This document shows, piece by piece, positions 4,259-53,762 of a DNA stretch of 64,000 nucleotides (within the stretch, counting starts at the first letter, position 1; every line of letters begins with the position of its first letter). The notes under the pieces are model-generated. The model was not told the DNA's origin, made no database searches, and saw only the letters and a program-made list of their open reading frames with translations. The stretch is taken from contig NZ_JANPKO010000096.1 in the NCBI RefSeq assembly GCF_031426035.1, positions 888 to 64,887 on the forward strand. The letters are read 5' to 3'. Made by a program: the position numbers and the translations under genes. The stretch is from Sphingomonas sp. (GTDB lineage: Bacteria > Pseudomonadota > Alphaproteobacteria > Sphingomonadales > Sphingomonadaceae).

Positions 4259-4633
4259 TTACTCGGGCGCCGGGCCGAGCTGCTGCCACAGCTCGACCTT
4301 GACCCCGTCGGGGTCGAGGATCCACGCGAATTTGCCGTAATCCTCCTCCTGCGTGCCGAGGATTTCGACCCCCTTGGCCTGCAACTCCGCGATCATCGCG
4401 TCGCGGTCGTCGACCCGCAGGTTGATCATGAACGGCTGCACGCTCGGCCCGAAATAATCGCTGTCCGCCTTGAACGGCGAGAGCAAGGAAAAGCCCTCGG
4501 CCTCGTCCTTCTTGAACGGGAACATCGCGCCCCATTCGCCGCCGATGCCGAGCGTCTCCTGGTACCAGGCGCGCGTCGCCTCGGGGTCGGCGACCTTGTA
4601 GAACACGCCGCCGAGGCCGGTCACTTTCGCCAT
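4259..4633 (-). CDS. VOC/glyoxalase family protein
   Basis: MAKVTGLGGVFYK...YGKFAWILDPDGVKVELWQ. Confidence 0.9.
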   Translation of the reverse strand: MAKVTGLGGVFYKVADPEATRAWYQETLGIGGEWGAMFPFKKDEAEGFSLLSPFKADSDYFGPSVQPFMINLRVDDRDAMIAELQAKGVEILGTQEEDYGKFAWILDPDGVKVELWQQLGPAPE

Positions 4634-4653
4634 TCTGTCCTCCGTAAGATTGC

Positions 4654-44365: not shown

Positions 44366-45874
44366 ATGCGCATGATCTGCCGCGGCCTGGTCGCCGCGCT
44401 TGGCCTGACCACCGCGATCGCCGCGACTGCGCAAACCCCCAACCGCGGCGAGCTCGCGGCGGCGGTCAAGGCGGGCCACGCCGCCAACGTCCAGGCGCTC
44501 CAGGACTGGATCAAGCTCCCCACCATCGCCGCCGAAAAGCTCAACGTGGTCGAAGGCGCCGAGCATATGCGCCGCCTCGCGCTCGACGCCGGCTTCCAGC
44601 AGGCGACGGTGGTCCAGACCAGCGGCGTCCCCGGCGTGTTCGCCACCCTCGACGCCGGCGCGCGCGACTGCATCGGCCTCTACTTCATGTACGACGTCAA
44701 GCAGTTCGATGCCGCAGAATGGAGCTCGCCCCCGCTCGAGGCGCGGATCGTCGACCGCTCCGGCGAAGGCAAGGCGATCGTCGGCCGCGGCGCGGTCAAC
44801 CAGAAGGGGCCGGAGATCGCCTTCCTCGCCGCCCTGAAGGCGTTCAAGGCTACGGGGCGCAAGCTCCCCGTCAACGTCGTGCTGGTCGCCGAGGGCGAGG
44901 AGGAGATCGGCTCGCCCAACTTCAAGCAGGTCATCGCCAACCCCGCCGTGCTCCCCGCGCTCAAGCAGTGCATCGGCGTGTTCATCCCCGGCGCCGGCCA
45001 GTCGTCGACCGGCTCGGCCAGCGTCGAATTGGGCGCCAAGGGCATCGTCGAATTGCAGCTGATCGCGAGCGGCGAGAAATGGGGCCGCGGCCCGAGCAAG
45101 GATGTCCACTCGAGCCTGATGGCGAGCGTCGACAGCCCCGCGTGGCGGCTGGTCAAGGCGCTCGGCACCCTGGTCAAGGACGACGGCCACACCCCCGCGG
45201 TGGCCGGCTGGTTCGAGCATGTCAAACCGCTCACCGCGCGCCAGAAGACCCTGATCGCCGAGGCCGCGGCCAAGGACAATGAGGCCGACGTGATGAAGGG
45301 CCTCGGCCTCAAGAAATGGATCGCCGACGAGGATTTCACCACTGCCATGCAGCGCCTCGCGTCGCAGCCGACGATCAACATCCAGGGGCTGGTCAGCGGC
45401 TACATGGGCCCCGGCGGCAAGACCGTGTTGCCCGGCCGCGCCGAAGCCAAGATCGACCTGCGGCTCGTGCCCGACATGACCCGCGAGGACGCCGTCGCCA
45501 AGCTGAAGGCGCACCTCGTCCAGCACGGCTACCCCGACATCGAGGTCAATGTCAGCGGCGGCTACGACCCGACCCAGACCGAGGAGGACAGCCTGCTCGT
45601 CCGCACCCAGAAGGCGGTGCTCGAGCGCGCCGGCGTGGCTTTTTCGGTCGAGCCGCGCGCGGCCGGCTCATGGCCCGGCGTGGTGTTCACCGGCGCCCCA
45701 CTCAACTTGCCGGCGGGCGGCTTCGGCATCGGCCGCGGCTCGGGCGCCCACGCCCCCAACGAATGGTATTTGATCGAAAGCGCCAACCCCAAAATCGCCG
45801 GGCTGGACGAATCCGCGATGTTCTACGTCGATTATCTATACGAGGTCGCGGCGGCGGCGAAGCGGGGGCGGTAG
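44366..45874 (+). CDS. M20/M25/M40 family peptidase
   Basis: MYDVK, GAVNQKG, EGEEEIGS, AHAPNE; signal peptide. Confidence 0.9.
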   Translation: MRMICRGLVAALGLTTAIAATAQTPNRGELAAAVKAGHAANVQALQDWIKLPTIAAEKLNVVEGAEHMRRLALDAGFQQATVVQTSGVPGVFATLDAGARDCIGLYFMYDVKQFDAAEWSSPPLEARIVDRSGEGKAIVGRGAVNQKGPEIAFLAALKAFKATGRKLPVNVVLVAEGEEEIGSPNFKQVIANPAVLPALKQCIGVFIPGAGQSSTGSASVELGAKGIVELQLIASGEKWGRGPSKDVHSSLMASVDSPAWRLVKALGTLVKDDGHTPAVAGWFEHVKPLTARQKTLIAEAAAKDNEADVMKGLGLKKWIADEDFTTAMQRLASQPTINIQGLVSGYMGPGGKTVLPGRAEAKIDLRLVPDMTREDAVAKLKAHLVQHGYPDIEVNVSGGYDPTQTEEDSLLVRTQKAVLERAGVAFSVEPRAAGSWPGVVFTGAPLNLPAGGFGIGRGSGAHAPNEWYLIESANPKIAGLDESAMFYVDYLYEVAAAAKRGR

Positions 45875-46030
45875 GAGCATCTTTCAGGCGTGAAAGCGAA
45901 GTGCGCGCGGCGTAGGGCAGCCATGTCGACAGGCCGGGGAGAGGGTGTCCGAATTCGGATCGTCTCAGGCGCTGCAATACATTACCCGGCGGGAGGCGCC
46001 AGCGAACCAGTCCCTGTTTTCATTGACGGC

Positions 46031-46062
46031 GAATGTCCGCTTTCGACCCAAAGCAGACATTC
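46031..46062. repeat. Palindromic repeat R1
   Basis: GAATGTCCGCTTT-CGACCC-AAAGCAGACATTC, a 13-bp stem with 1 mismatch, flanked on both sides by GACGGC. Confidence 0.85.
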
Positions 46063-46106
46063 GACGGCAGAAGGCTTGCGTCCGTTCCGTTGAGACGGAC
46101 CGTCGA

Positions 46107-48263
46107 TCAGAAACTGAAGTCGTTCACGCTCAAGGAATCGGTGACGACATCAATCCGGATGTCAGCCCCGCCACCGTCCACGTCCGCATAGACAACGTAC
46201 AAGCCTGGGACGCTAGAGCTGGTAACCCACCAGATTTGACCCGCTACACCGGTACCGAAGGCAACATAGGTGAAGGCTTCGTTTGCTCTGACATCCGGAT
46301 TGTAAATGGCGTCGATTGCCGACAGGTCGATCCCATCAGATATCTGGGGGACGCCACCCGATACGAAGTCGTGGATCGTGTCGAAAGAAGCAATCGTAGA
46401 GTCCTGCCACGAGACGAAGACGAACCGGTCGGAGAAGCCGCCGCCCCACAAGTTATCAGCCCCGCTGTCCCCCTGCAGAACATCAGCGAAATCGGCGCCG
46501 CGCAAGATGTCGTTTCCGCTGCCGCCGTACAGTTGGTAATTATAACCGACCAAATTTCCGTTGCCAGCGGTCAATGTGTCATTTCCGCCCTGTCCGTAGA
46601 GATATCCGCCCTGAGACCATTGAAACGAAATGTTGTTGTCGAGCTCGTTGCCATACATGGTCCCATAAAAAACGGAAACGGGAGCTCCGTTTTCGACGTT
46701 TGCGGGTAGCACGTAGAAATCGAGCGTGGTTTCCAGATACTCGATCCCTTCACCGATGTTCTCCACGACCGTGTTTCCGGCGCTATGGATATAATACGTG
46801 TCGTCTCCGGCACCGCCCACTAGTAGATCGCCATCGCCGTAGCTGCTGAGCACGTCGTTGCCCGCGCCACCGTAAAGCGAGTCGCTCCCGGGGCCTCCGT
46901 TGAGCCCGTCATTGCCGCTGCCGCCGGTAAGGATGTTGTCACCGGCATTGCCATTAATGCTGACACCATAGCCCAGAGCCGCGGCATTGACGTTAAGCGC
47001 GGTGGTGCCGGTGGTGTCGGCCCCGCCGCCCAATCCGGTCCCAGCGAGGCCCGTACCGATCACAATCCGCTCTATGCCTGTGTCGCCCGCATAGAGGACA
47101 AGCGTGTCGTCGGCGATCGTTGAAGTGAAGCGCACCTCGTTTTCATAAAATCCGCTTTCGGTGTCGGCAAACTCGGCCGCGCCATGGTCCGCTCCTGTCG
47201 CCACGATGTAAACGTCATGACCATCTTGTCCATTTAGAGCGTCGATCCCGGGGCCGCCGATCAGGATGTCGTGGCCGCCGCTGCCATTCAGGATGTCGTT
47301 GCCGCCGCGGCCGTCGAGAATGTTGTGGCCGGCATTGCCGAGGATGTGCTGAGAAAAATCGTTACCGGTGAGGTTGATCGCGCCTGTTCCGGCGGTGTTT
47401 GTCGTGGTCAAGATCTCGATCTGAGCGGCTGCCGCAAGAGCGTAACTGACCGAAGCGAGAATACGATCGGAGAAGCCGCCGCTGGCGCCCTCGGTCACCT
47501 GGTCGCCGGCATTGTCGACATAATACCAGTCGTTGCCCCCGTAGCCGATCATTGTATCGGCTCCGCCGCCGCCGTTCAGGATGTTGGCGCCTGCATTTCC
47601 GGTCAGCGTCTGGGCAAAGCCGTTGCCCGTCAAATTGATCGCGGTCGTCGCCGCTGCCACGGAAGCGCTGAGGATTTCGACCTGGGTCGAGGCGTTCAGC
47701 GCATAACTGACCGTTGTGAAGACCCGGTCGAGGCCGCCGCCCGCCGCCTCGGTGACAATGTCGGCGGCCGTGTCGACATAATAAAAATCGTTGCCGGCAA
47801 AGCCGACCAGCGTGTCGGCGCCGCCACCGCCGTTCAAGGTATTGACGCCGGCGTTGCCGTGGATGGTCTGGACGAAGGAATTGCCGGTCAGATTAAGCGC
47901 CGTCGTCCCTGCCGTGTTGGTGGTCGTGAGGATTTCGACATGCGCTCCTGCGGCGAGCGCGTAGCTCACAGAAGACAGAATACGGTCGGTTCCTCCGTCG
48001 GCGAGCTCGATGACCGTGTCCGCTGCAGCGTCGACGTAAAACCAGTCGTTGCCGGCTCCGCCGTCCATCCTGTCGGCGCCAGTGCCGCCGTTGAGCGTGT
48101 CGTTGCCCAAGTCGCCGAAGAGGTAATCGTTGCCGCCTAGGCCGTAGATTGTGTCGTTACCGGTTGTCACCCCGCTAATGTCGGCATGGCCCGCAGGGAC
48201 ACTGCGCCCATCTCCGGCGCGGTGGATAAAATCATTACCGTTGCTACCGTTGACGACGGGCAT
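46107..48263 (-). CDS. RTX/hemolysin-type calcium-binding repeat protein
   Basis: Many GGxGxDxL nonapeptides, three ~66-aa tandem modules, serralysin-like C-terminus; GGAGG RBS. Confidence 0.9.
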   Translation of the reverse strand: MPVVNGSNGNDFIHRAGDGRSVPAGHADISGVTTGNDTIYGLGGNDYLFGDLGNDTLNGGTGADRMDGGAGNDWFYVDAAADTVIELADGGTDRILSSVSYALAAGAHVEILTTTNTAGTTALNLTGNSFVQTIHGNAGVNTLNGGGGADTLVGFAGNDFYYVDTAADIVTEAAGGGLDRVFTTVSYALNASTQVEILSASVAAATTAINLTGNGFAQTLTGNAGANILNGGGGADTMIGYGGNDWYYVDNAGDQVTEGASGGFSDRILASVSYALAAAAQIEILTTTNTAGTGAINLTGNDFSQHILGNAGHNILDGRGGNDILNGSGGHDILIGGPGIDALNGQDGHDVYIVATGADHGAAEFADTESGFYENEVRFTSTIADDTLVLYAGDTGIERIVIGTGLAGTGLGGGADTTGTTALNVNAAALGYGVSINGNAGDNILTGGSGNDGLNGGPGSDSLYGGAGNDVLSSYGDGDLLVGGAGDDTYYIHSAGNTVVENIGEGIEYLETTLDFYVLPANVENGAPVSVFYGTMYGNELDNNISFQWSQGGYLYGQGGNDTLTAGNGNLVGYNYQLYGGSGNDILRGADFADVLQGDSGADNLWGGGFSDRFVFVSWQDSTIASFDTIHDFVSGGVPQISDGIDLSAIDAIYNPDVRANEAFTYVAFGTGVAGQIWWVTSSSVPGLYVVYADVDGGGADIRIDVVTDSLSVNDFSF

Positions 48264-48380
48264 AACGATCCTCCTCGCGGCGGCGTAGCCCACTAGGAAT
48301 TATCAAGTTTTTCTGCGGCCCCGCATGTTCAGCCTACGCTGCTGGTCCAGCGAGTCAATCATCCACCAGCAAGGCTTCCC

Positions 48381-48408
48381 ATGTCCGCTTTCCACCCATT
48401 GCGGACAT
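48381..48408. repeat. Palindromic repeat R2
   Basis: ATGTCCGC-TTTCCACCCATT-GCGGACAT, directly abutting the TGA at 48409-48411. Confidence 0.85.
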
Positions 48409-48972
48409 TCATCCTCGTGGGTCAGTCAGCTTTTTGAATGCGGCCCACAGGTAAACTGCGAACAGTGTGCCGCTTCCGATGGCCCATGCCCAAGTAGCAA
48501 TTGACCCAGGCAGCGAAATCAATGCGCCAAAGAACATGGCCCCAGTCAGAAGGAGCGCAAAGATTATAAACGGCCAATTGAGCATTGCGCGAACCTCTCG
48601 CCGGACTTGGCAAGCGGAGCGCGGTGGAGCGATGTCGGGACGGCCACTGACTAGGCGGCGAGGTGCCAAGCTAGACCAGAGCAGCCACCCGGTCACGGAT
48701 GCTACACACGCAGCGATGATGACCCAATCTGTCCGCTCTGGCAGTGCCAGAGCTTGCGACAAAAGCGTCCAGACCAAAATTGCCAGACCGACTAGTCCAG
48801 CAGTTTTCCAAGTTCCACGTCTGCTTGCAACCCGTTGCCAGTTAGCCGCAAGAGCTTCAAATTCTTCGTCAGTCACGAGCTTACCACCCGCGCGTTTCGA
48901 CGGGTAATAGAGGTATCCGCCTTCGACCGGCTTAAACTGTTTGGTGAAGGCCCCGATTGCATCAAACATCAT
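48409..48972 (-). CDS. Hypothetical membrane protein
   Basis: 187 aa, four hydrophobic segments, lower GC, AAGGGTGA RBS. Confidence 0.8.
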   Translation of the reverse strand: MMFDAIGAFTKQFKPVEGGYLYYPSKRAGGKLVTDEEFEALAANWQRVASRRGTWKTAGLVGLAILVWTLLSQALALPERTDWVIIAACVASVTGWLLWSSLAPRRLVSGRPDIAPPRSACQVRREVRAMLNWPFIIFALLLTGAMFFGALISLPGSIATWAWAIGSGTLFAVYLWAAFKKLTDPRG

Positions 48973-48998
48973 TCACCCTTTTTGGAGCAGCATTGCCG

Positions 48999-49035
48999 AT
49001 CTAATCGCCGCTTTCCACCATTGCGGACGTTAGAC
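48999..49035. repeat. Palindromic repeat R3 with attC-like ends
   Basis: ATCTAAT-CGCCGCTTTCCACCATTGCGGAC-GTTAGAC; overlaps the TAA at 49030-49032. Confidence 0.8.
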
Positions 49036-49413
49036 ATCTACCCTGCGGAGGGTGTTCGCTATGAACGGGTCGACATCGATGTGGCGCATCTCTCCGGCTG
49101 CCTCCGTCGCGTCATCGATATTGCCTAGGGCGACACCGCAAACGAACCGCCGGTAAGCGTCGAAATACACCTCCTCAGGCCGAGTTACGGGCCAGTCCTC
49201 GGCCAGGATCGACCGCGCCAGCTCGGACCTGCGAGGTTCGCCTAGGGACAGCATCAGTGTCAGGCGATACAGTGGAAGCAGCCGCGAATACCTGCTGCCG
49301 GGCCTAGGGTCGCGCTGTACGAGCTGAAGCGCTTTCTCCAGTGAGCCCCGATTCTGTGCCCATCTTGCTCTCGCCAGCACAGCGAAGTCTAAGAGGCTGT
49401 TCCAGCCGGACAT
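49030..49413 (-). CDS. Hypothetical helical protein
   Basis: 127-aa ORF with lower GC; no motif recognised. Confidence 0.65.
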   Translation of the reverse strand: MSGWNSLLDFAVLARARWAQNRGSLEKALQLVQRDPRPGSRYSRLLPLYRLTLMLSLGEPRRSELARSILAEDWPVTRPEEVYFDAYRRFVCGVALGNIDDATEAAGEMRHIDVDPFIANTLRRVDV

Positions 49414-49446
49414 CGGCTAAGTTTACCCTTGATGGCTCGCCGCGGA

Positions 49447-49537
49447 TTTCGGGGACACGAATTTCGGGGACACAATACTAATTAGTACGGCGGGTCGCAA
49501 TCGGCTGCGGTTTCGGGGACACAATACTAATTAGTAC
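49447..49537. repeat. Direct repeats with an internal palindrome
   Basis: TTTCGGGGACAC at 49447; TTTCGGGGACACAATACTAATTAGTAC at 49462-49488 and 49511-49537; internal TACTAATTAGTA palindrome. Confidence 0.9.
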
Positions 49538-49776
49538 TGCGGATCGCGCTCGGCTGGGCGTCAGCTCCGCCGATTTCGCTGTCCTACATTAGAAAATCCG
49601 TGAGACACTGGCCGTGCCCGAGTCGTTTTGGGGCTCTTTGACGTCGTCGATCCCCCCACTTTCTCCCTACGCCCCTGCTACCCCCGTAAAGTCACAAAAA
49701 TGGTCGCCGGGTACGGGACAATAAGGACTTTAGCGGCTTGAATCGCCCGCGCGGCAGTCTGCGCCGGCCTCCGCGA

Positions 49777-50058
49777 TCAGCGCGGCTGGACTCGACGGCA
49801 GTCGTCGCTCGGCCAGGTCTTTCCCTTGCGGCAGCGCTCGGCGAGCGCGCGCAGCTCGCGGCCGAGCTGCTCGTCGGCGCGGCGCGCGGCGCGGCCGGCG
49901 TTGGCGTCGGCTTCGGCCTGGCTGGTGGTCGCGGCGTCGACCGCATGGCCGGCGACCTTGACCGGCAGCGTCGCGACATCGACCGCGGTGCTGGCGATGG
50001 TGCCGACCACGCAGCCGCTCAGCGACAGCCCGGCGGCGATCAGGGCAAATGCTTTCAT
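49777..50058 (-). CDS. Small lipoprotein
   Basis: MKAFALIAAGLSLSGC lipobox. Confidence 0.8.
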   Translation of the reverse strand: MKAFALIAAGLSLSGCVVGTIASTAVDVATLPVKVAGHAVDAATTSQAEADANAGRAARRADEQLGRELRALAERCRKGKTWPSDDCRRVQPR

Positions 50059-50101
50059 GGGCGCGAGACTCGCACAGGCCGCGCGTACCGGCAATGAACG
50101 A

Positions 50102-52516
50102 TCACCCCGCCATCGCCTCCTGCGCCAGCGCTTCGGCCTGGATCAGCAACGTTTCGTCCGCCTCGCCGCCGGGAGGCATCGCCTCGCGCCCGACGATCAC
50201 CATCAGCGGCACCGCCATCGGGGTGATGCGGTCGGCGTGGACATGGACCATGGTCGCCGCGGCGCGGTCGACCAGGCGCACCAGCCGGCCGAGCTCGGTC
50301 ATCCTCGCCCGCGCATCCTCCCACGCCGCACGCAGCAGGAGATGCCCGGGCTCGTAGCGGCGCAGCACGTCGTAGATGAGGTCGGTCGAGAAGCTCACCT
50401 GGCGCCCCGACTTGCGCTGTCCCGGATGGTGGCGCTCGACTAGCCCGCCGATCACCGCGACCTCGCGGAAGGCCGATTTGAGCAGATAGGATTGCTCGAC
50501 CCAGTCGGTGAATTCCTGTTCCAGGATGTCGGGCGAGAACAGTGATTGCGGGTCGGTGATCGGCTCGAGCCCGTAGCACGCCAGGCCGTAGTCGTTGGCG
50601 ACGAAGCCCAGCGGCTTGAGCCCGGCATGCTCCATCCGCCGCGTCAGCAGCATGCCGAGCGACTGGTGCGCGTTCCATCCCTCGAAGCTGTAGGCGACCA
50701 TGAAGTGGCGGCCGTGGTGCTCGAAGGTCTCGACCAGCAATTCGTGCGGCTCGGGCAGCCGCGATCGCCGGCCCTGCACCTCGAGCCACTCGGCGACGTC
50801 GTCGGGGAAGCGGTGCCAGTCGTTGCGGTCGCACAGCATGTGGCGGACGCGGTCGGCGAGGTGGGTCGACATCGACATCCGCTGCCCGCCGTAAGTGACG
50901 ATCCGCGCCGATTTCGATGAGGCGTGGACCAGGATATCACCGTCCTTGATGCGTTCAACCTCGAGGCTCAGCCCGGCGAAGAAGAAATGGTCGCCCGGAG
51001 TCAAAGTCGAAGCAAAGCCTTCCTCGACCGTGCCCAGCTTCCGCCCGTTCTTGAAGCGCACGCTGAGCAAAGGCGCCTCGACGATGATCCCCGCGTTCAT
51101 GCGGTGCTGCACCGCCACCGCCGGCCGCGTGATCCGCCACCGCCCGTCGCCCTCGGGCACCAGCCGGCGGAACTTGTCATAGGCTTTGAGCGCGTATCCC
51201 CCGGTGGCGATGAAGCTGAGGATCTCCTGGAAGGTCTCGTCCTTGAGCCCCGCATACGGCGACGCCGAGCGCACTTCGGCGAGCAGCTCGGCCTCGTCGA
51301 ACGGCCCCGCGCAGGCGATCGCCAGGATATGCTGGGCGAGCACGTCGAGCGCGCCGGGGCGGAAGATTTCGGGGTCGAGCTCGTTGTCGCCGATCGCGTC
51401 CAGTGCCGCGCGCGCTTCGAGATATTCGAAGCGGTTGCCGGGCACGATCATGCCGCGGCTCGGCTCGTCGAGGCGGTGGTTGGAGCGGCCGATCCGCTGC
51501 AGCAGCCGCGAGCTGCCCTTGGGCGCGCCCATCTGGACGACGAGGTCGATGTCCCCCCAGTCGATCCCGAGGTCGAGGCTCGAGGTCGCGACCAGCCCGC
51601 GCAACTTGCCCGCGCTCATCGCCGCCTCGATCCGGCGCCGTGCTTCCAATGCCAGGCTGCCGTGATGGATGCCGATCGCCAGCGACAGGTCGTTAACCGC
51701 CCACAGGTCCTGGAAAATCAGTTCGGCGAGGCTGCGCGTGTTGCAGAAGATCAGCGTCGTCCGGTGCCGCTCGATCAGCCCCATCACCTCGCGCGCGGCG
51801 TGCCGCCCCGAATGGCCCGACCACGGGATGCGCCCGTCGGGAATGAGGATCGAAAGGTCGGCCGCGGCGCCGGGGTCGCCCTCGACCAGCGCGACCGCGT
51901 CGATGTCGGCATCGGGCGCGAGCCACGAGCGGTAGGCGTCGGGGTCGGCGATGGTCGCCGACAAGCCGACCCGCCTGAGCCCCGGCGCGAGCACCTCCAG
52001 CCGCGCCATCGACAGCGCCAGCAAGTCGCCGCGTTTTTCACGCGCGAAGGCGTGCAGCTCGTCGACGACGATCGTCTTCAAGCCCGCGAACAGCGTCGCG
52101 CTGTCGGGGTAGCTGAGCAGCAGGCTGAGCGATTCAGGCGTGGTAAGCAGGATGTGGGGCGGACGCTCGCGCTGGCGTTTCTTGCGGTCCGACGGCGTGT
52201 CGCCGCTGCGCGTTTCGACGCGAATGCTGAGCCCCATCTCGGCAATCGGCCCGAGCAGGTTGCGCTGGACGTCGACCCCGAGCGCTTTGAGCGGCGACAC
52301 ATACAAGGTGTGCAGCCCCTCGGCGGGCGCCTCGATCAGGTCGCAGATCGTCGGCAGGAACCCCGCCAGCGTCTTGCCGGCCCCGGTCGCGGCGACCAGC
52401 AGCGCGCTGTTCCCGGCGCGCGCCACGCCGAGCATCTCGAGCTGGTGGCGGCGCGGTTGCCAGCCGCGCTCGCTAAACCAGCGCTGGACGACCGCGGGAA
52501 GTCCGGCGTCGTTCAG
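50102..52516 (-). CDS. Ligase-associated DEXH-box helicase (Lhr family); start probably CTG at 52516
   Basis: ATGAGKT, DELH, SAT, QRIGRS; the frame stays open upstream of the ATG at 52435 with the Q-motif-like WQPRRHQ. Confidence 0.92.
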   Translation of the reverse strand: MNDAGLPAVVQRWFSERGWQPRRHQLEMLGVARAGNSALLVAATGAGKTLAGFLPTICDLIEAPAEGLHTLYVSPLKALGVDVQRNLLGPIAEMGLSIRVETRSGDTPSDRKKRQRERPPHILLTTPESLSLLLSYPDSATLFAGLKTIVVDELHAFAREKRGDLLALSMARLEVLAPGLRRVGLSATIADPDAYRSWLAPDADIDAVALVEGDPGAAADLSILIPDGRIPWSGHSGRHAAREVMGLIERHRTTLIFCNTRSLAELIFQDLWAVNDLSLAIGIHHGSLALEARRRIEAAMSAGKLRGLVATSSLDLGIDWGDIDLVVQMGAPKGSSRLLQRIGRSNHRLDEPSRGMIVPGNRFEYLEARAALDAIGDNELDPEIFRPGALDVLAQHILAIACAGPFDEAELLAEVRSASPYAGLKDETFQEILSFIATGGYALKAYDKFRRLVPEGDGRWRITRPAVAVQHRMNAGIIVEAPLLSVRFKNGRKLGTVEEGFASTLTPGDHFFFAGLSLEVERIKDGDILVHASSKSARIVTYGGQRMSMSTHLADRVRHMLCDRNDWHRFPDDVAEWLEVQGRRSRLPEPHELLVETFEHHGRHFMVAYSFEGWNAHQSLGMLLTRRMEHAGLKPLGFVANDYGLACYGLEPITDPQSLFSPDILEQEFTDWVEQSYLLKSAFREVAVIGGLVERHHPGQRKSGRQVSFSTDLIYDVLRRYEPGHLLLRAAWEDARARMTELGRLVRLVDRAAATMVHVHADRITPMAVPLMVIVGREAMPPGGEADETLLIQAEALAQEAMAG

Positions 52517-52763: not shown

Positions 52764-53762
52764 ATGCCCCGCCTGGGTTCCTGGATCGAGCCTTGTCCCG
52801 AAGGCATCTATGTGCGCCCCGCGGACGCGTGGGTCGACCCCTCGCAGCCCAAGCCGCGCGCGCTCGTCACCCACGGCCATGCCGATCACGCCCGCGGCGG
52901 CCACGGCGAAGTGTGGGCGACCGCCGAGACGCTGGCGATCATGGGCGTGCGCTATGGCGAGCAGAGCGGGCACCCGGTGGGCTATGGCGACAGCGTGCGG
53001 CTGGGCGAAGTCGAGGTCGGCTTCGTCCCCGCCGGCCACGTCCTCGGCTCGGCTCAGATCGTGCTCGAATACAAGGGAGAGCGAGTCGTCGTGTCGGGCG
53101 ACTACAAGCGCCGCGCCGACCCGACCTGCCCGCCGTTCGTGCCGGTGCCGTGCGACATCTTCATCACCGAGGCGACCTTCGGCCTGCCGGTGTTCCGCCA
53201 TCCCGATACTGGCAGCGAGATCGACCGCCTGCTTCACCGCCTCCACGCCGACCCGAGCCGCTGCGTGCTGGTCGGCGCCTACGCTTTGGGCAAGGCGCAG
53301 CGGGTGATCATGGAATTGCGCCACCGCGGCCACGACGCGCCGATCTATTACCATGGCGCGATGGAGCGCTTGTGCCGCCTGTATGAGGAATTGGGCGTGC
53401 CGCTCGGCGAGCTTCGCCCGGTCGCCGACGCGGCCAAGGCGGACATCGCGGGCCACATCGTGATCTGCCCGCCGGGCGCATTGAACGACCGCTGGTCGCG
53501 GCGCCTGCCCGATCCGGTGACGGCAATGGCGTCGGGCTGGATGCGCATCCGCCAACGTGCCCGCCAGCGCAATGTCGAGCTGCCGTTGATCATCTCCGAC
53601 CACGCCGACTGGGACGAGCTGACCACCACCATCCGCGAGGTCGCGCCCAAGGAAGTATGGATCACGCATGGCCGCGAGGATGCGCTGATGCATTGGTGCA
53701 TGACGCGCCAGATCAAGGCGCGGGAACTGAATTTGGTGGGGTACGAAGATGAAGATGATTGA
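52764..53762 (+). CDS. Ligase-associated DNA damage response exonuclease (MBL/beta-CASP)
   Basis: THGHADH, AGHVLGSA, EATFGLP, SDHADW. Confidence 0.92.
   Translation: MPRLGSWIEPCPEGIYVRPADAWVDPSQPKPRALVTHGHADHARGGHGEVWATAETLAIMGVRYGEQSGHPVGYGDSVRLGEVEVGFVPAGHVLGSAQIVLEYKGERVVVSGDYKRRADPTCPPFVPVPCDIFITEATFGLPVFRHPDTGSEIDRLLHRLHADPSRCVLVGAYALGKAQRVIMELRHRGHDAPIYYHGAMERLCRLYEELGVPLGELRPVADAAKADIAGHIVICPPGALNDRWSRRLPDPVTAMASGWMRIRQRARQRNVELPLIISDHADWDELTTTIREVAPKEVWITHGREDALMHWCMTRQIKARELNLVGYEDEDD

Follow-up and report, generated by a model that had tools for sequence, protein, structure and literature searches.

A low-GC island in a Sphingomicrobium-type genome as a probable gene-cassette array with a short Xer-like site

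The island and its three palindromic sites

The window, a 64,000-nucleotide stretch of DNA from Sphingomonas sp., features a 3.7-kb low-GC island (46030-49740) with a GC content of 56-63% compared with ~68% in the flanks. The host assembly is a 2.3-Mb Sphingomicrobium-type metagenome-assembled genome (MAG, G000) that is 94% complete. On one side the island is bordered by the gene for an Lhr helicase and a small ORF, and on the other by a gene for an M20 peptidase, which is convergent. A metagenome scan with the M20 peptidase as the query returned only relatives with at most 71% identity, and none with synteny to the Lhr/M20 locus. Read along the minus strand, the features of the island are:

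49572..49732, minus strand: ~160-nt non-coding element at the island head, with an 84% identical repeat elsewhere in the genome
49030..49413, minus strand: putative cassette 1, a 127-aa ORF with no family match
48999..49035, minus strand: site R3, core 49006-49028, a degenerate copy
48409..48972, minus strand: putative cassette 2, a membrane protein (187 aa) from a family conserved in sphingomonads, without a Pfam match
48381..48411, minus strand: site R2, core 48383-48406, centre GGGTGG
46107..48263, minus strand: putative cassette 3, an RTX calcium-binding repeat protein with 718 aa when counted from the ATG; translation might instead begin at a GTG at 48293
46031..46062, minus strand: site R1, core 46035-46058, with flanks GAATGTCTGCTTTGGGTCGAAAGCGGACATTC, centre GGGTCG

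The repeat of this element heads another RTX island (G000 C10:5282-5455); in the window copy there is no recombination site, and Rfam gives no match to it. R1 is a near-consensus copy at the distal end of the array, and its arms pair as a full 13-bp stem. R3 is degenerate: its centre lacks one nucleotide (GG-TGG), and its right arm is GCGGCG. A pattern scan recovers R1 and R2, with 0.01 matches expected from shuffled sequences. Folding as single-stranded DNA gave z = -5.4 for R1 and z = -4.6 for R2, and the signal of R3 is weaker (z = -2.8). The TAA stop of ORF 49030-49413 (49032-49030) abuts R3, and the TGA stop of ORF 48409-48972 (48411-48409) lies 2 nt ahead of the R2 core. An earlier note on this DNA had described three minus-strand palindromes, two of which overlap ORF stop codons, with stems that lack a U-tract. 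All three are present where it placed them, both stop codon overlaps are seen, and no T-tract follows R1, R2, or R3. The gap of 26 bp that it gave between R3 and ORF 48972 is likewise found when counted from the extended stem, and is 33 nt when counted from the core. An intrinsic terminator was rejected for these sites based on the missing T-tract, a terminator consensus scan that calls none of the three, and the occurrence of both orientations relative to genes. A known RNA family was rejected as well, as an Rfam scan of 45000-50500 (E up to 1) gave one unrelated weak match only.

ORF 48972 is preceded by an AGGG-type ribosome-binding site. A homologue of cassette 2 with 72% identity, found in another Sphingomicrobium MAG, lies between two sites and has the spacer ATCGGCAATGYTGC in common with the window copy, while its neighbours are unrelated. 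The genome has RTX paralogues in two further islands with sites (C147 and C10), and the homology to the C147 paralogue starts exactly at R2. R2 is followed by a TTGACT-16 nt-TAGGCT motif (48358-48331), which was spotted by eye and was not listed by a consensus scan. This motif is conserved in the paralogous RTX copy, and therefore the RTX gene is not obviously promoterless.

The site family and its arrays

R1, R2, and R3 are members of one conserved palindromic element of ~34 bp with the consensus c-K-AAT-GTCCGC-WWT-GGGTSG-AAA-GCGGAC-ATT. A logo made from 415 distinct copies revealed that conservation is confined to positions -5 to +28 (34 nt) and that both the stem and the centre are conserved in sequence. 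In the 28-bp core, an asymmetric 6-bp centre (GGGTSG) separates a variable 11-bp arm (ATGTCCGCWWT) from a conserved arm of the same length (AAAGCGGACAT), and this 11-6-11 layout is the geometry of a tyrosine-recombinase core site. Attachment-site boxes of the attC type (RYYYAAC/GTTRRRY) are absent from the logo and are not a feature of the family.

The MAG contains ~17 copies of the site in ~9 loci, all of which are small islands with 52-62% GC compared with 68% genome-wide. Its congeners contain 0-92 copies per genome, and the three richest genomes are G002 (92), G007 (88), and G020 (62). No copies were found in other families of the order, save one match with 2 mismatches. Exact copies occur in Sphingomonadales, Caulobacterales, and Xanthomonadales. 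The loci returned by the M20 peptidase scan served as the negative control, and no copies with up to 2 mismatches were found in these 722 kb of unrelated soil contigs. Full-text literature searches, which included the site sequence itself as a query, found no description of such a system.

The sites form arrays with a median spacing of 474 bp, in which 244 of 251 adjacent pairs point in the same direction and 7 in opposite directions. The Dyella arrays feature one small ORF per site, and many single cassettes have sites on both sides. Some sites lie 0-40 nt after stop codons, in between co-directional genes with ribosome-binding sites of their own. The direction of the genes relative to the site varies, with 131 sites between antisense genes and 69 between sense genes; these directions come from a home-made codon-usage gene caller and are a rough guide only. 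Simple ORF-to-stop statistics did not separate the two site orientations in high-GC DNA. Within one array, genes are found on either strand while the orientation of the sites stays uniform. There are also 27 abutting tandem doublets with a period of 35-37 nt, and these are direct rather than inverted.

Homology blocks between genomes begin and end at the sites. An orthologous intergenic locus is empty in the MAG and is filled with different cassettes in three relatives, where the first site lies 1-10 nt past the stop codon of the core gene. Two species with core genes that are ~72% identical share a lipoprotein cassette at 93% identity, and the homology of this cassette begins inside the site. 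A unit of site, recombinase gene, and site is ~99% identical in three different contexts, and the divergence starts at the outer edges of the sites. At another locus (L082) a site pair is placed inside a truncated copy of a gene.

A small tyrosine recombinase linked to the site

In relatives of the MAG, the site arrays contain a gene for a tyrosine recombinase of ~200 aa (197-204 aa) that consists of the catalytic domain only. Five loci that were chosen through the site contain this gene. Among nine contigs that were chosen through the protein alone, eight feature the gene between inverted sites with the site polarity flipping at the gene; the upstream site is inverted and, in most, the downstream site is located 2-6 nt past the stop codon. 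A hand tally of the sphingomonad-type loci from both selection routes gave 23/23 upstream sites on the minus strand and 42/42 downstream sites on the plus strand. Arrays extend on both sides of the gene. The sites adjacent to it are a distinct variant with the inner arm GTCCGATTT or GGCAGCWWT and a centre that is always GGGTGG, and by analogy with integrons these variant sites can be regarded as attI-like.

Copies of the gene are found in Sphingomonas rhizophila (CP060717.1, 199 aa) and Dyella sp. 2YAF14, and other cultured carriers are S. lenta, S. tabacisoli, and Lysobacter soli KCTC 22011. The residues R54, K82, H151, R154, H177, and Y186 are invariant in the recombinase. Its nearest NCBIfam families and solved structures are Xer proteins. 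It is not an IntI-type integrase, as its matches to TIGR02249 and NF011946 reach only 22 bits (cut-off 265) and 19 bits (cut-off 435), respectively; with invertase families the score is 34 bits, far below the cut-off of 222. FimB and FimE are tyrosine recombinases of similar size (~200 aa) that likewise lack an N-terminal domain, and, like the Rci shufflon, they invert a fixed segment for phase or antigenic variation. The small recombinase resembles these systems in that its gene adjoins short inverted sites, and inversions could carry segments across the gene; however, FimB/FimE and the Rci shufflon feature no arrays of unrelated acquired genes. The family is large: public data clustered at 90% identity contain over 8000 protein clusters of it, and ~1-kb contigs with the gene number in the thousands. 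The Klebsiella and Pantoea copies of the gene are bordered by half-sites that resemble terminal inverted repeats. Distant plasmid homologues are followed by unrelated hairpins, and therefore the family may also serve other purposes, for example multimer resolution.

No homologue of the recombinase was found in the 94% complete MAG, possibly because ~1-kb contigs were lost in binning. Given this absence, the array in the window would be served in trans by a copy lost in assembly or binning, or it would be an orphan comparable to a CALIN, a cluster of two or more attC sites with no integrase nearby. With its three sites and no recombinase the layout fits a CALIN, but the sites are not attC sites, so that the array is an analogue of this class and not a member.

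Proposed cassette exchange, its alternatives, and known systems

The reading favoured here, with a probability of roughly two in three, is that the three cassettes of the island form an array belonging to a site-specific recombination system, integron-like in its working but built from different parts. The small catalytic-domain-only enzyme, with its gene bracketed by two inverted sites, is the proposed recombinase; it would cut these sites, and the position of the cut is predicted likewise. When two direct sites recombine, a cassette would leave as a circle with one site, which could then integrate at any other site. Growth at the inverted sites that flank the recombinase gene would produce arrays pointing away from it on both sides, and integration elsewhere would produce small orphan arrays like that of the window. 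The site might act either as a duplex or as a folded single strand. Several observations count against this model. The empty orthologous locus has no pre-existing copy of the site, and therefore the first insertion is not accounted for. The tandem doublets are not predicted by simple excision and integration, the head of the window array has no site and R3 is degenerate, and a Dyella locus (L119) shows the mirror image of the usual polarity around the recombinase gene. The lack of a recombinase homologue in the MAG, the varying gene direction relative to the site, and the unrelated hairpins behind the distant plasmid homologues also count against the model.

The system is not an integron; it would work like one and has an Xer-like site geometry. 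Cury et al. (2016) found no integrons, In0, or CALINs in 243 alphaproteobacterial genomes and termed this complete absence of integrons "extremely puzzling" (PMC4889954). Like integrons and CALINs, the arrays consist of mostly single-gene, low-GC cassettes with no assigned function, each stop codon has a palindromic site at it or close by, and the sites have one orientation. A tyrosine recombinase gene is likewise located at the array head beside variant sites, and orphan arrays without a recombinase occur. Unlike attC sites, which are 57-141 bp, are defined by structure, and have extrahelical bases, the site is 34 bp, is conserved in sequence, and does not feature the R''/L''-L'/R' layout. 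The recombinase is also different, with ~200 aa, no core-binding domain, and no IntI insertion, whereas IntI has ~320 aa. An integron has a single platform, attI beside intI, and its cassettes are co-oriented and mostly promoterless; here the arrays are found on both sides of the gene and over many chromosomal loci, and genes can point either way relative to the site.

The main inference of the earlier note, that the island holds mobile cassettes with a short site of 28-37 bp and a recombinase acting in trans, possibly as an undescribed system, is supported computationally. Site-bounded cassettes recur in unrelated contexts, an orthologous locus is empty or occupied among relatives, and the site length agrees with the 34-nt logo and its 28-bp core. 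In the genome and its relatives the sites lie in low-GC islands and in same-orientation arrays, and the co-occurring tyrosine recombinase that it suggested looking for was found in the arrays of relatives and is absent from the MAG. Its statement that integrons are essentially absent from Alphaproteobacteria agrees with the 243-genome survey. Two of its points need qualification. The layout is not that of integron cassettes, given the unfixed gene direction, the many single cassettes with sites on both sides, and the scatter over ~9 loci. Of the proposed "recombinase or HUH nuclease", the former is supported by a small tyrosine recombinase physically tied to the site in relatives, and the HUH part is not, as the RAYT family PF01797 is absent from site-rich genomes.

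It is improbable that the sites are substrates of the host XerC/XerD, as in Acinetobacter dif modules, with the small recombinase as a passenger or a site-targeting element. The Acinetobacter modules (PMC6449649, PMC13141974) share with the present system a 28-bp 11-6-11 core with one arm better conserved, which is typical of Xer sites, and small gene modules with sites on both sides that need no recombinase of their own. The persistence of the system in a MAG without the small recombinase, and the proximity of this protein to Xer families and structures, also point in this direction. However, the sites are direct repeats, whereas pdif sites alternate C/D and D/C, and they are chromosomal and not plasmid-borne. 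The site appears unlike the dif sequence; with the E. coli dif sequence as the query, no dif site was located in the MAG. A dedicated small recombinase is linked to the site, and its gene is fixed between inverted sites at which the polarity flips, which is unlike a passenger.

An equally doubtful explanation is that the recombinase gene and its two inverted sites form a ~0.9-kb IS-like selfish element, with solo hairpins as MITE-like derivatives or footprints that pile up in tolerant, recently acquired DNA, and that the "cassettes" are the stretches between insertions. The movement of the unit as a block and its presence on thousands of ~1-kb contigs would fit such an element, as would the Klebsiella and Pantoea half-sites; the abutting doublets and the L082 site pair resemble hairpin insertions. 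The gene-containing homology blocks, however, end at sites on both sides in unrelated contexts, which requires exchange at the sites and not mere insertion beside genes, and the uniform orientation within arrays also argues against this explanation.

Still less probable is a role of the hairpins in RNA, as intercistronic or 3' stabilisers or U-tract-less terminators on horizontally acquired genes. Their stems are stable and they lie 0-40 nt past stop codons, between co-directional genes with their own ribosome-binding sites. Yet they occur in either orientation relative to the gene while remaining uniform within an array, even across opposite-strand genes, they have no T-tract and no Rfam match, and they feature a conserved asymmetric loop with a polarity that flips at the recombinase gene. 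A secondary effect of the hairpins on transcripts may exist. The sites are very unlikely to be REP elements spread by RAYT (an HUH Y1 transposase), which are likewise short, conserved palindromes outside genes, present in tens of copies, frequently right behind genes and sometimes as doublets, since a scan of 41 genomes for PF01797 found it absent from G000 and from the three richest genomes (G002, G007, and G020), with in-genus matches only in G001 and G012, and since the copies here are restricted to low-GC islands, are identical in sequence across bacterial classes, coincide with homology breakpoints, and form direct and not inverted doublets.

In textbook accounts, bacteria capture single genes by means of integrons. 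For a broader reading the evidence is about evenly balanced: soil Sphingomonadales and Caulobacterales together with Xanthomonadales may have a second, integron-independent cassette system, with a minimal tyrosine recombinase and a 28-bp Xer-like core, in which cassettes cross classes and occupy many loci. If true, a second system would fill the unexplained absence of integrons from Alphaproteobacteria, and it would explain the trade of small accessory genes among sphingomonads and their relatives. It would also account for the many soil assemblies that are interrupted at integrase-bearing contigs of ~1 kb, and its recombinase, very small and with a site of 28 bp, could become a tool. In annotation, the ends of acquired DNA can be read from the site to a single base, and the system would reveal a large pool of cassettes that is invisible to attC-based tools.

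The window array and the site family

The earlier note described three minus-strand ORFs, each followed by a related palindrome. All three palindromes, R1, R2 and R3, were located, and R1 and R2 share one pattern.

Features of the window array
49413-49030, minus strand: ORF1, followed by R3
49006-49028, minus strand: R3, 1 nt past the TAA stop of ORF1
48972-48409, minus strand: ORF2, followed by R2
48383-48406 (core), minus strand: R2, a palindrome beginning 2 nt past the TGA stop of ORF2
48263-46107, minus strand: RTX repeat protein gene, followed by R1
46035-46058 (core), minus strand: R1, a palindrome

The pattern is matched in the window by R1 and R2, against 0.01 matches expected by chance; R3 is a degenerate copy with a centre that is 1 base short and a right arm of GCGGCG. 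Single-strand folding places R1 and R2 far above shuffled sequence and is less clear for R3 (z = -2.8). The stems had been said to lack a U-tract and this holds, as a T-tract is absent at R1, R2 and R3 and a terminator scan calls none of the three. The island (45900-49740) has a GC content of 56-63% compared with 68% for the genome, and is flanked by an Lhr helicase gene and a small ORF on one side and a convergent M20 peptidase gene on the other.

The head of the array is a non-coding element of ~160 nt (TAAAGTCCTTATTGTCCCGTACCCGGCGACCATTTTTGTGACTTTACG...TCTAATGTAGGACAGCGAAATC; 49572-49732, minus strand) without a site. It has a copy with 84% identity on contig C10 of the host genome, G000 (C10:5282-5455), and each of the two copies lies directly past a core gene and heads an RTX-bearing island. 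The element has no Rfam match; it could be what is left of an attachment site, or else a regulatory RNA. On the 5' side of ORF1 (49462-49537, minus strand) there are two identical 27-mers, GTACTAATTAGTATTGTGTCCCCGAAA, which contain the palindrome TACTAATTAGTA, and a partial third; the head element on C10 lacks these repeats, which may serve a regulator as its operator. The 2.3-Mb G000 genome features three RTX calcium-binding repeat paralogues (C147:3565-6258, C10:3184-5073 and window 46107-48263), each in its own small site-bearing island.

The host MAG (2.29 Mb, 164 contigs) contains ~17 copies of the site in 9 loci, all of which are local GC troughs (52-62%), with one orientation within each locus. 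Within the genus, 20 of 25 genomes carry the site, with 0 to 92 copies per genome, and the congeners include Sphingomicrobium-named records (L017, a contig from G002, is identical to DASSFK010000099.1). The site is absent from the other families of the order, except for one 2-mismatch match. An exact 24-mer scan of one genome per species matched at least 120 contigs. Among the matches listed, ~55 are sphingomonad-named (Sphingomicrobium 21, Sphingomonas 20, others 14), 18 are labelled just 'Alphaproteobacteria' and about a dozen just 'Pseudomonadota/Proteobacteria', and the remainder includes Caulobacterales (Brevundimonas, Caulobacter and Phenylobacterium) and Xanthomonadales (Dyella, 7; Lysobacter, Noviluteimonas and Rhodanobacter). 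Exact copies also occur in MAGs labelled Luteolibacter, Geodermatophilaceae, Nitrospinaceae, Nitrospirota and Chloroflexia (L025, L040, L068, L076, L101); three of the five are on short contigs, while the L068 and L101 contigs are 51.6 kb and 412 kb, and these copies may be either binning errors or a wider host range. Copies with up to 2 mismatches numbered zero in a control of 722 kb of unrelated high-GC soil contigs.

A logo of 415 distinct copies has information solely from -5 to +28 (c-K-AAT-GTCCGC-WWT-GGGTSG-AAA-GCGGAC-ATT-n-g). Interpreted as a recombination site, it consists of an 11-bp arm, ATGTCCGCWWT, an asymmetric 6-bp centre, which is GGGTCG in 51% and GGGTGG in 47% of copies, and a second, better conserved 11-bp arm on the right, AAAGCGGACAT. 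WW is AA in about half of all copies, which breaks the pairing there, and the outer flank positions covary little. Paired change is seen in Dyella copies (TTC...GAA). The two arms are conserved in sequence, which is at least as compatible with a protein recognising two half-sites as with hairpin selection.

Array architecture and a small tyrosine recombinase

A scan for the palindrome bore out the expectation of arrays: the family lies in low-GC islands (mean inter-site GC 58%), and 244 of 251 adjacent pairs within 3 kb share their orientation, with a median spacing of 474 bp. Abutting doublets make up 27 of the 251 pairs. In G020, one of the richest carriers, six loci (L146, L149, L152, L154, L156 and L158, e.g. 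L149:4279-4337) feature abutting tandem doublets and one triplet, with a period of 35-37 nt and a semi-conserved linker, ACACTCGGCTAAT. What looks like a recombination scar is present at G000 C147:6335-6368, where an incomplete left arm runs directly into a full site (GTCCGCAATG-GTCCGCTACGGGTGGAAAGCGGAC). The cleanest arrays are in Dyella sp. 2YAF14, one of which has eight sites in 3.2 kb. Each of these sites is followed by a single ORF of 54-186 aa, the stop is at a distance of 0-40 nt from the site, and the next ATG comes after 25-65 nt that include a ribosome-binding site. Genes in the relatives were called with a crude home-made caller. The gene-sense strand of the site reads GGGTSG in the window and CSACCC in Dyella and G020:C10, and in the G000 C84 array the five sites are all co-oriented even though one gene runs the other way. 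This variable gene direction speaks against a strand-specific RNA role for the site.

The earlier note proposed a recombinase or an HUH nuclease acting in trans. The nuclease proposal is not supported: RAYT (PF01797) is absent from G000 and from the three site-richest genomes. The recombinase proposal fared better: clustering all ORFs near sites revealed a ~200-aa tyrosine recombinase amid the sites in five loci (Dyella, two Sphingomonas MAGs, G020 and another proteobacterium), but the G000 MAG has no homologue. This absence may be technical, because binning discards repeat-bounded ~1-kb contigs. The sole Pfam match of the protein is PF00589. It scores far under the cut-off of every NCBIfam family, the Xer families being nearest, and reaches 22 bits against the integron integrase family (cut-off 265); the closest solved structure is XerD (E = 2e-8). 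R54, K82, H151, R154, H177 and Y186 are invariant. The protein family is very large, with no fewer than 8000 clusters at 90% identity, most on ~1-kb contigs.

As an independent test, nine contigs were retrieved via the recombinase protein alone, and in eight of them the site occupies constant positions, with one inverted copy 55-155 nt 5' of the start and one direct copy 3' of the gene, mostly 2-6 nt past the stop. Sphingomonas rhizophila (CP060717.1) has 25 sites within 20.6 kb around the gene. In sphingomonad-type loci from either retrieval route, contiguous upstream sites are all minus (23/23) and downstream sites all plus (42/42), so that the arrays on either side of the gene point outward; the polarity flip is also found at the Dyella locus, in mirror image. 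The recombinase-adjacent sites are a variant with GGGTGG as the invariable centre and an inner arm of GTCCGATTT or GGCAGCWWT. When the S. rhizophila genome is compared with two metagenome contigs, the site-recombinase-site unit shows ~99% identity across all three, and the sequences diverge at the outer edges of both sites, pointing to very recent exchange there.

Recombinase relatives with 40-62% identity are found on 451 plasmids of rhizobia, roseobacters, Pantoea, E. coli and Klebsiella, where the gene is flanked by other hairpins or half-sites; the wider family may have diverged sites or other roles. The Pantoea vagans plasmid pPV989-508 (L161, 2501-2531) and ~33 Pantoea plasmids carry the palindrome GAATGTCCGCTTT-GTGTCA-AAAGCGGACATT, whose arms are as in the site and whose centre differs. 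Pantoea, Klebsiella, Sinorhizobium and Rhizobium are plasmid-richest in this palindrome and also among the richest in recombinase homologues. The Klebsiella pneumoniae plasmid pF93-2_1 (L169, 2900-3630) and P. vagans pPant2 (L170) have a homologous 200-aa 'site-specific integrase' gene with TAATGTCTGCAAT upstream and GCGGACATTA downstream, which look like a single site split in half, in an arrangement reminiscent of an IS-like unit of ~0.7 kb.

Probable cassette exchange and a proposed mechanism

Four genomes share an orthologous intergenic site between convergent genes. In G000 it is 23 nt long without a palindromic site, and in the three relatives the first palindrome lies 1-10 nt past the core-gene stop and the cassettes differ in each. 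A lipoprotein cassette (G000 C148:26110-26643) is 93% identical in G020, compared with ~72% for core genes; its homology begins within the upstream site past the first arm and stops 13 nt after the stop codon, and the flanks are unrelated. ORF2 is a member of a protein family that is conserved in sphingomonads, and a 72%-identical copy lies between two co-oriented sites in a Sphingomicrobium MAG (GCA_039919705.1); the two copies have the spacer ATCGGCAATGYTGC in common and are unrelated beyond the sites, with different neighbour genes. Homology between the RTX unit of the window and its C147 paralogue starts exactly at the site, and the boundaries of other cassette pairs behave alike.

In another Sphingomicrobium MAG (L082, DASSFK010000099.1; ~1500-1810 vs 4440-4642), a 200-nt 3' ORF fragment is 97% identical to a full copy 3 kb away and lies directly past a site doublet, ahead of another site; it is a truncated cassette with its breakpoint at a site edge. 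In a congener, a site-bearing island (L015 1466-2000, G024:C3) follows the orthologue of window gene 52764-53762, whereas in G000 (window ~53760) the next gene overlaps directly, so islands occupy different chromosomal places in different species. A large serine recombinase gene is also present twice in G000 (C100:7888-9588 and C148:22136-23740), each time with a conserved small neighbour gene and a few kb from site-bearing cassettes; it has homologues in L039, L054 and L065 and is probably a separate mobile element.

The evidence is comparative throughout, and the mechanism is a proposed one. Excision between direct sites would yield a circle with one site, and integration of the circle at any site would restore a directly repeated pair. 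If circles entered at the inverted sites on either side of the recombinase gene, this would produce the outward polarity, which inversion between both arms would keep, and integration at other places would give scattered orphan arrays such as that of the window. The model does not explain the abutting doublets and leaves unexplained the first insertion into a site-less place, the site-less head of the window array and the mirrored Dyella polarity.

Relation to known cassette systems

The earlier note likened the layout of ORF plus stop-overlapping palindrome to that of integron cassettes. Integron identity is ruled out by the lack of IntI, of attC and of a single platform, and by the variable gene orientation. 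Acinetobacter dif modules are similar in site geometry and module logic; the system described here differs in its direct repeats, chromosomal location and dedicated small recombinase. No description of the cassette system was found in the literature searched, which was a single collection, so novelty is not proven. Cury et al. 2016 (PMC4889954) detected neither integrons nor In0 nor CALINs in the 243 alphaproteobacterial genomes of their study, in agreement with the earlier statement that integrons are essentially absent from Alphaproteobacteria, and it is this lack that makes an alternative cassette system here notable.
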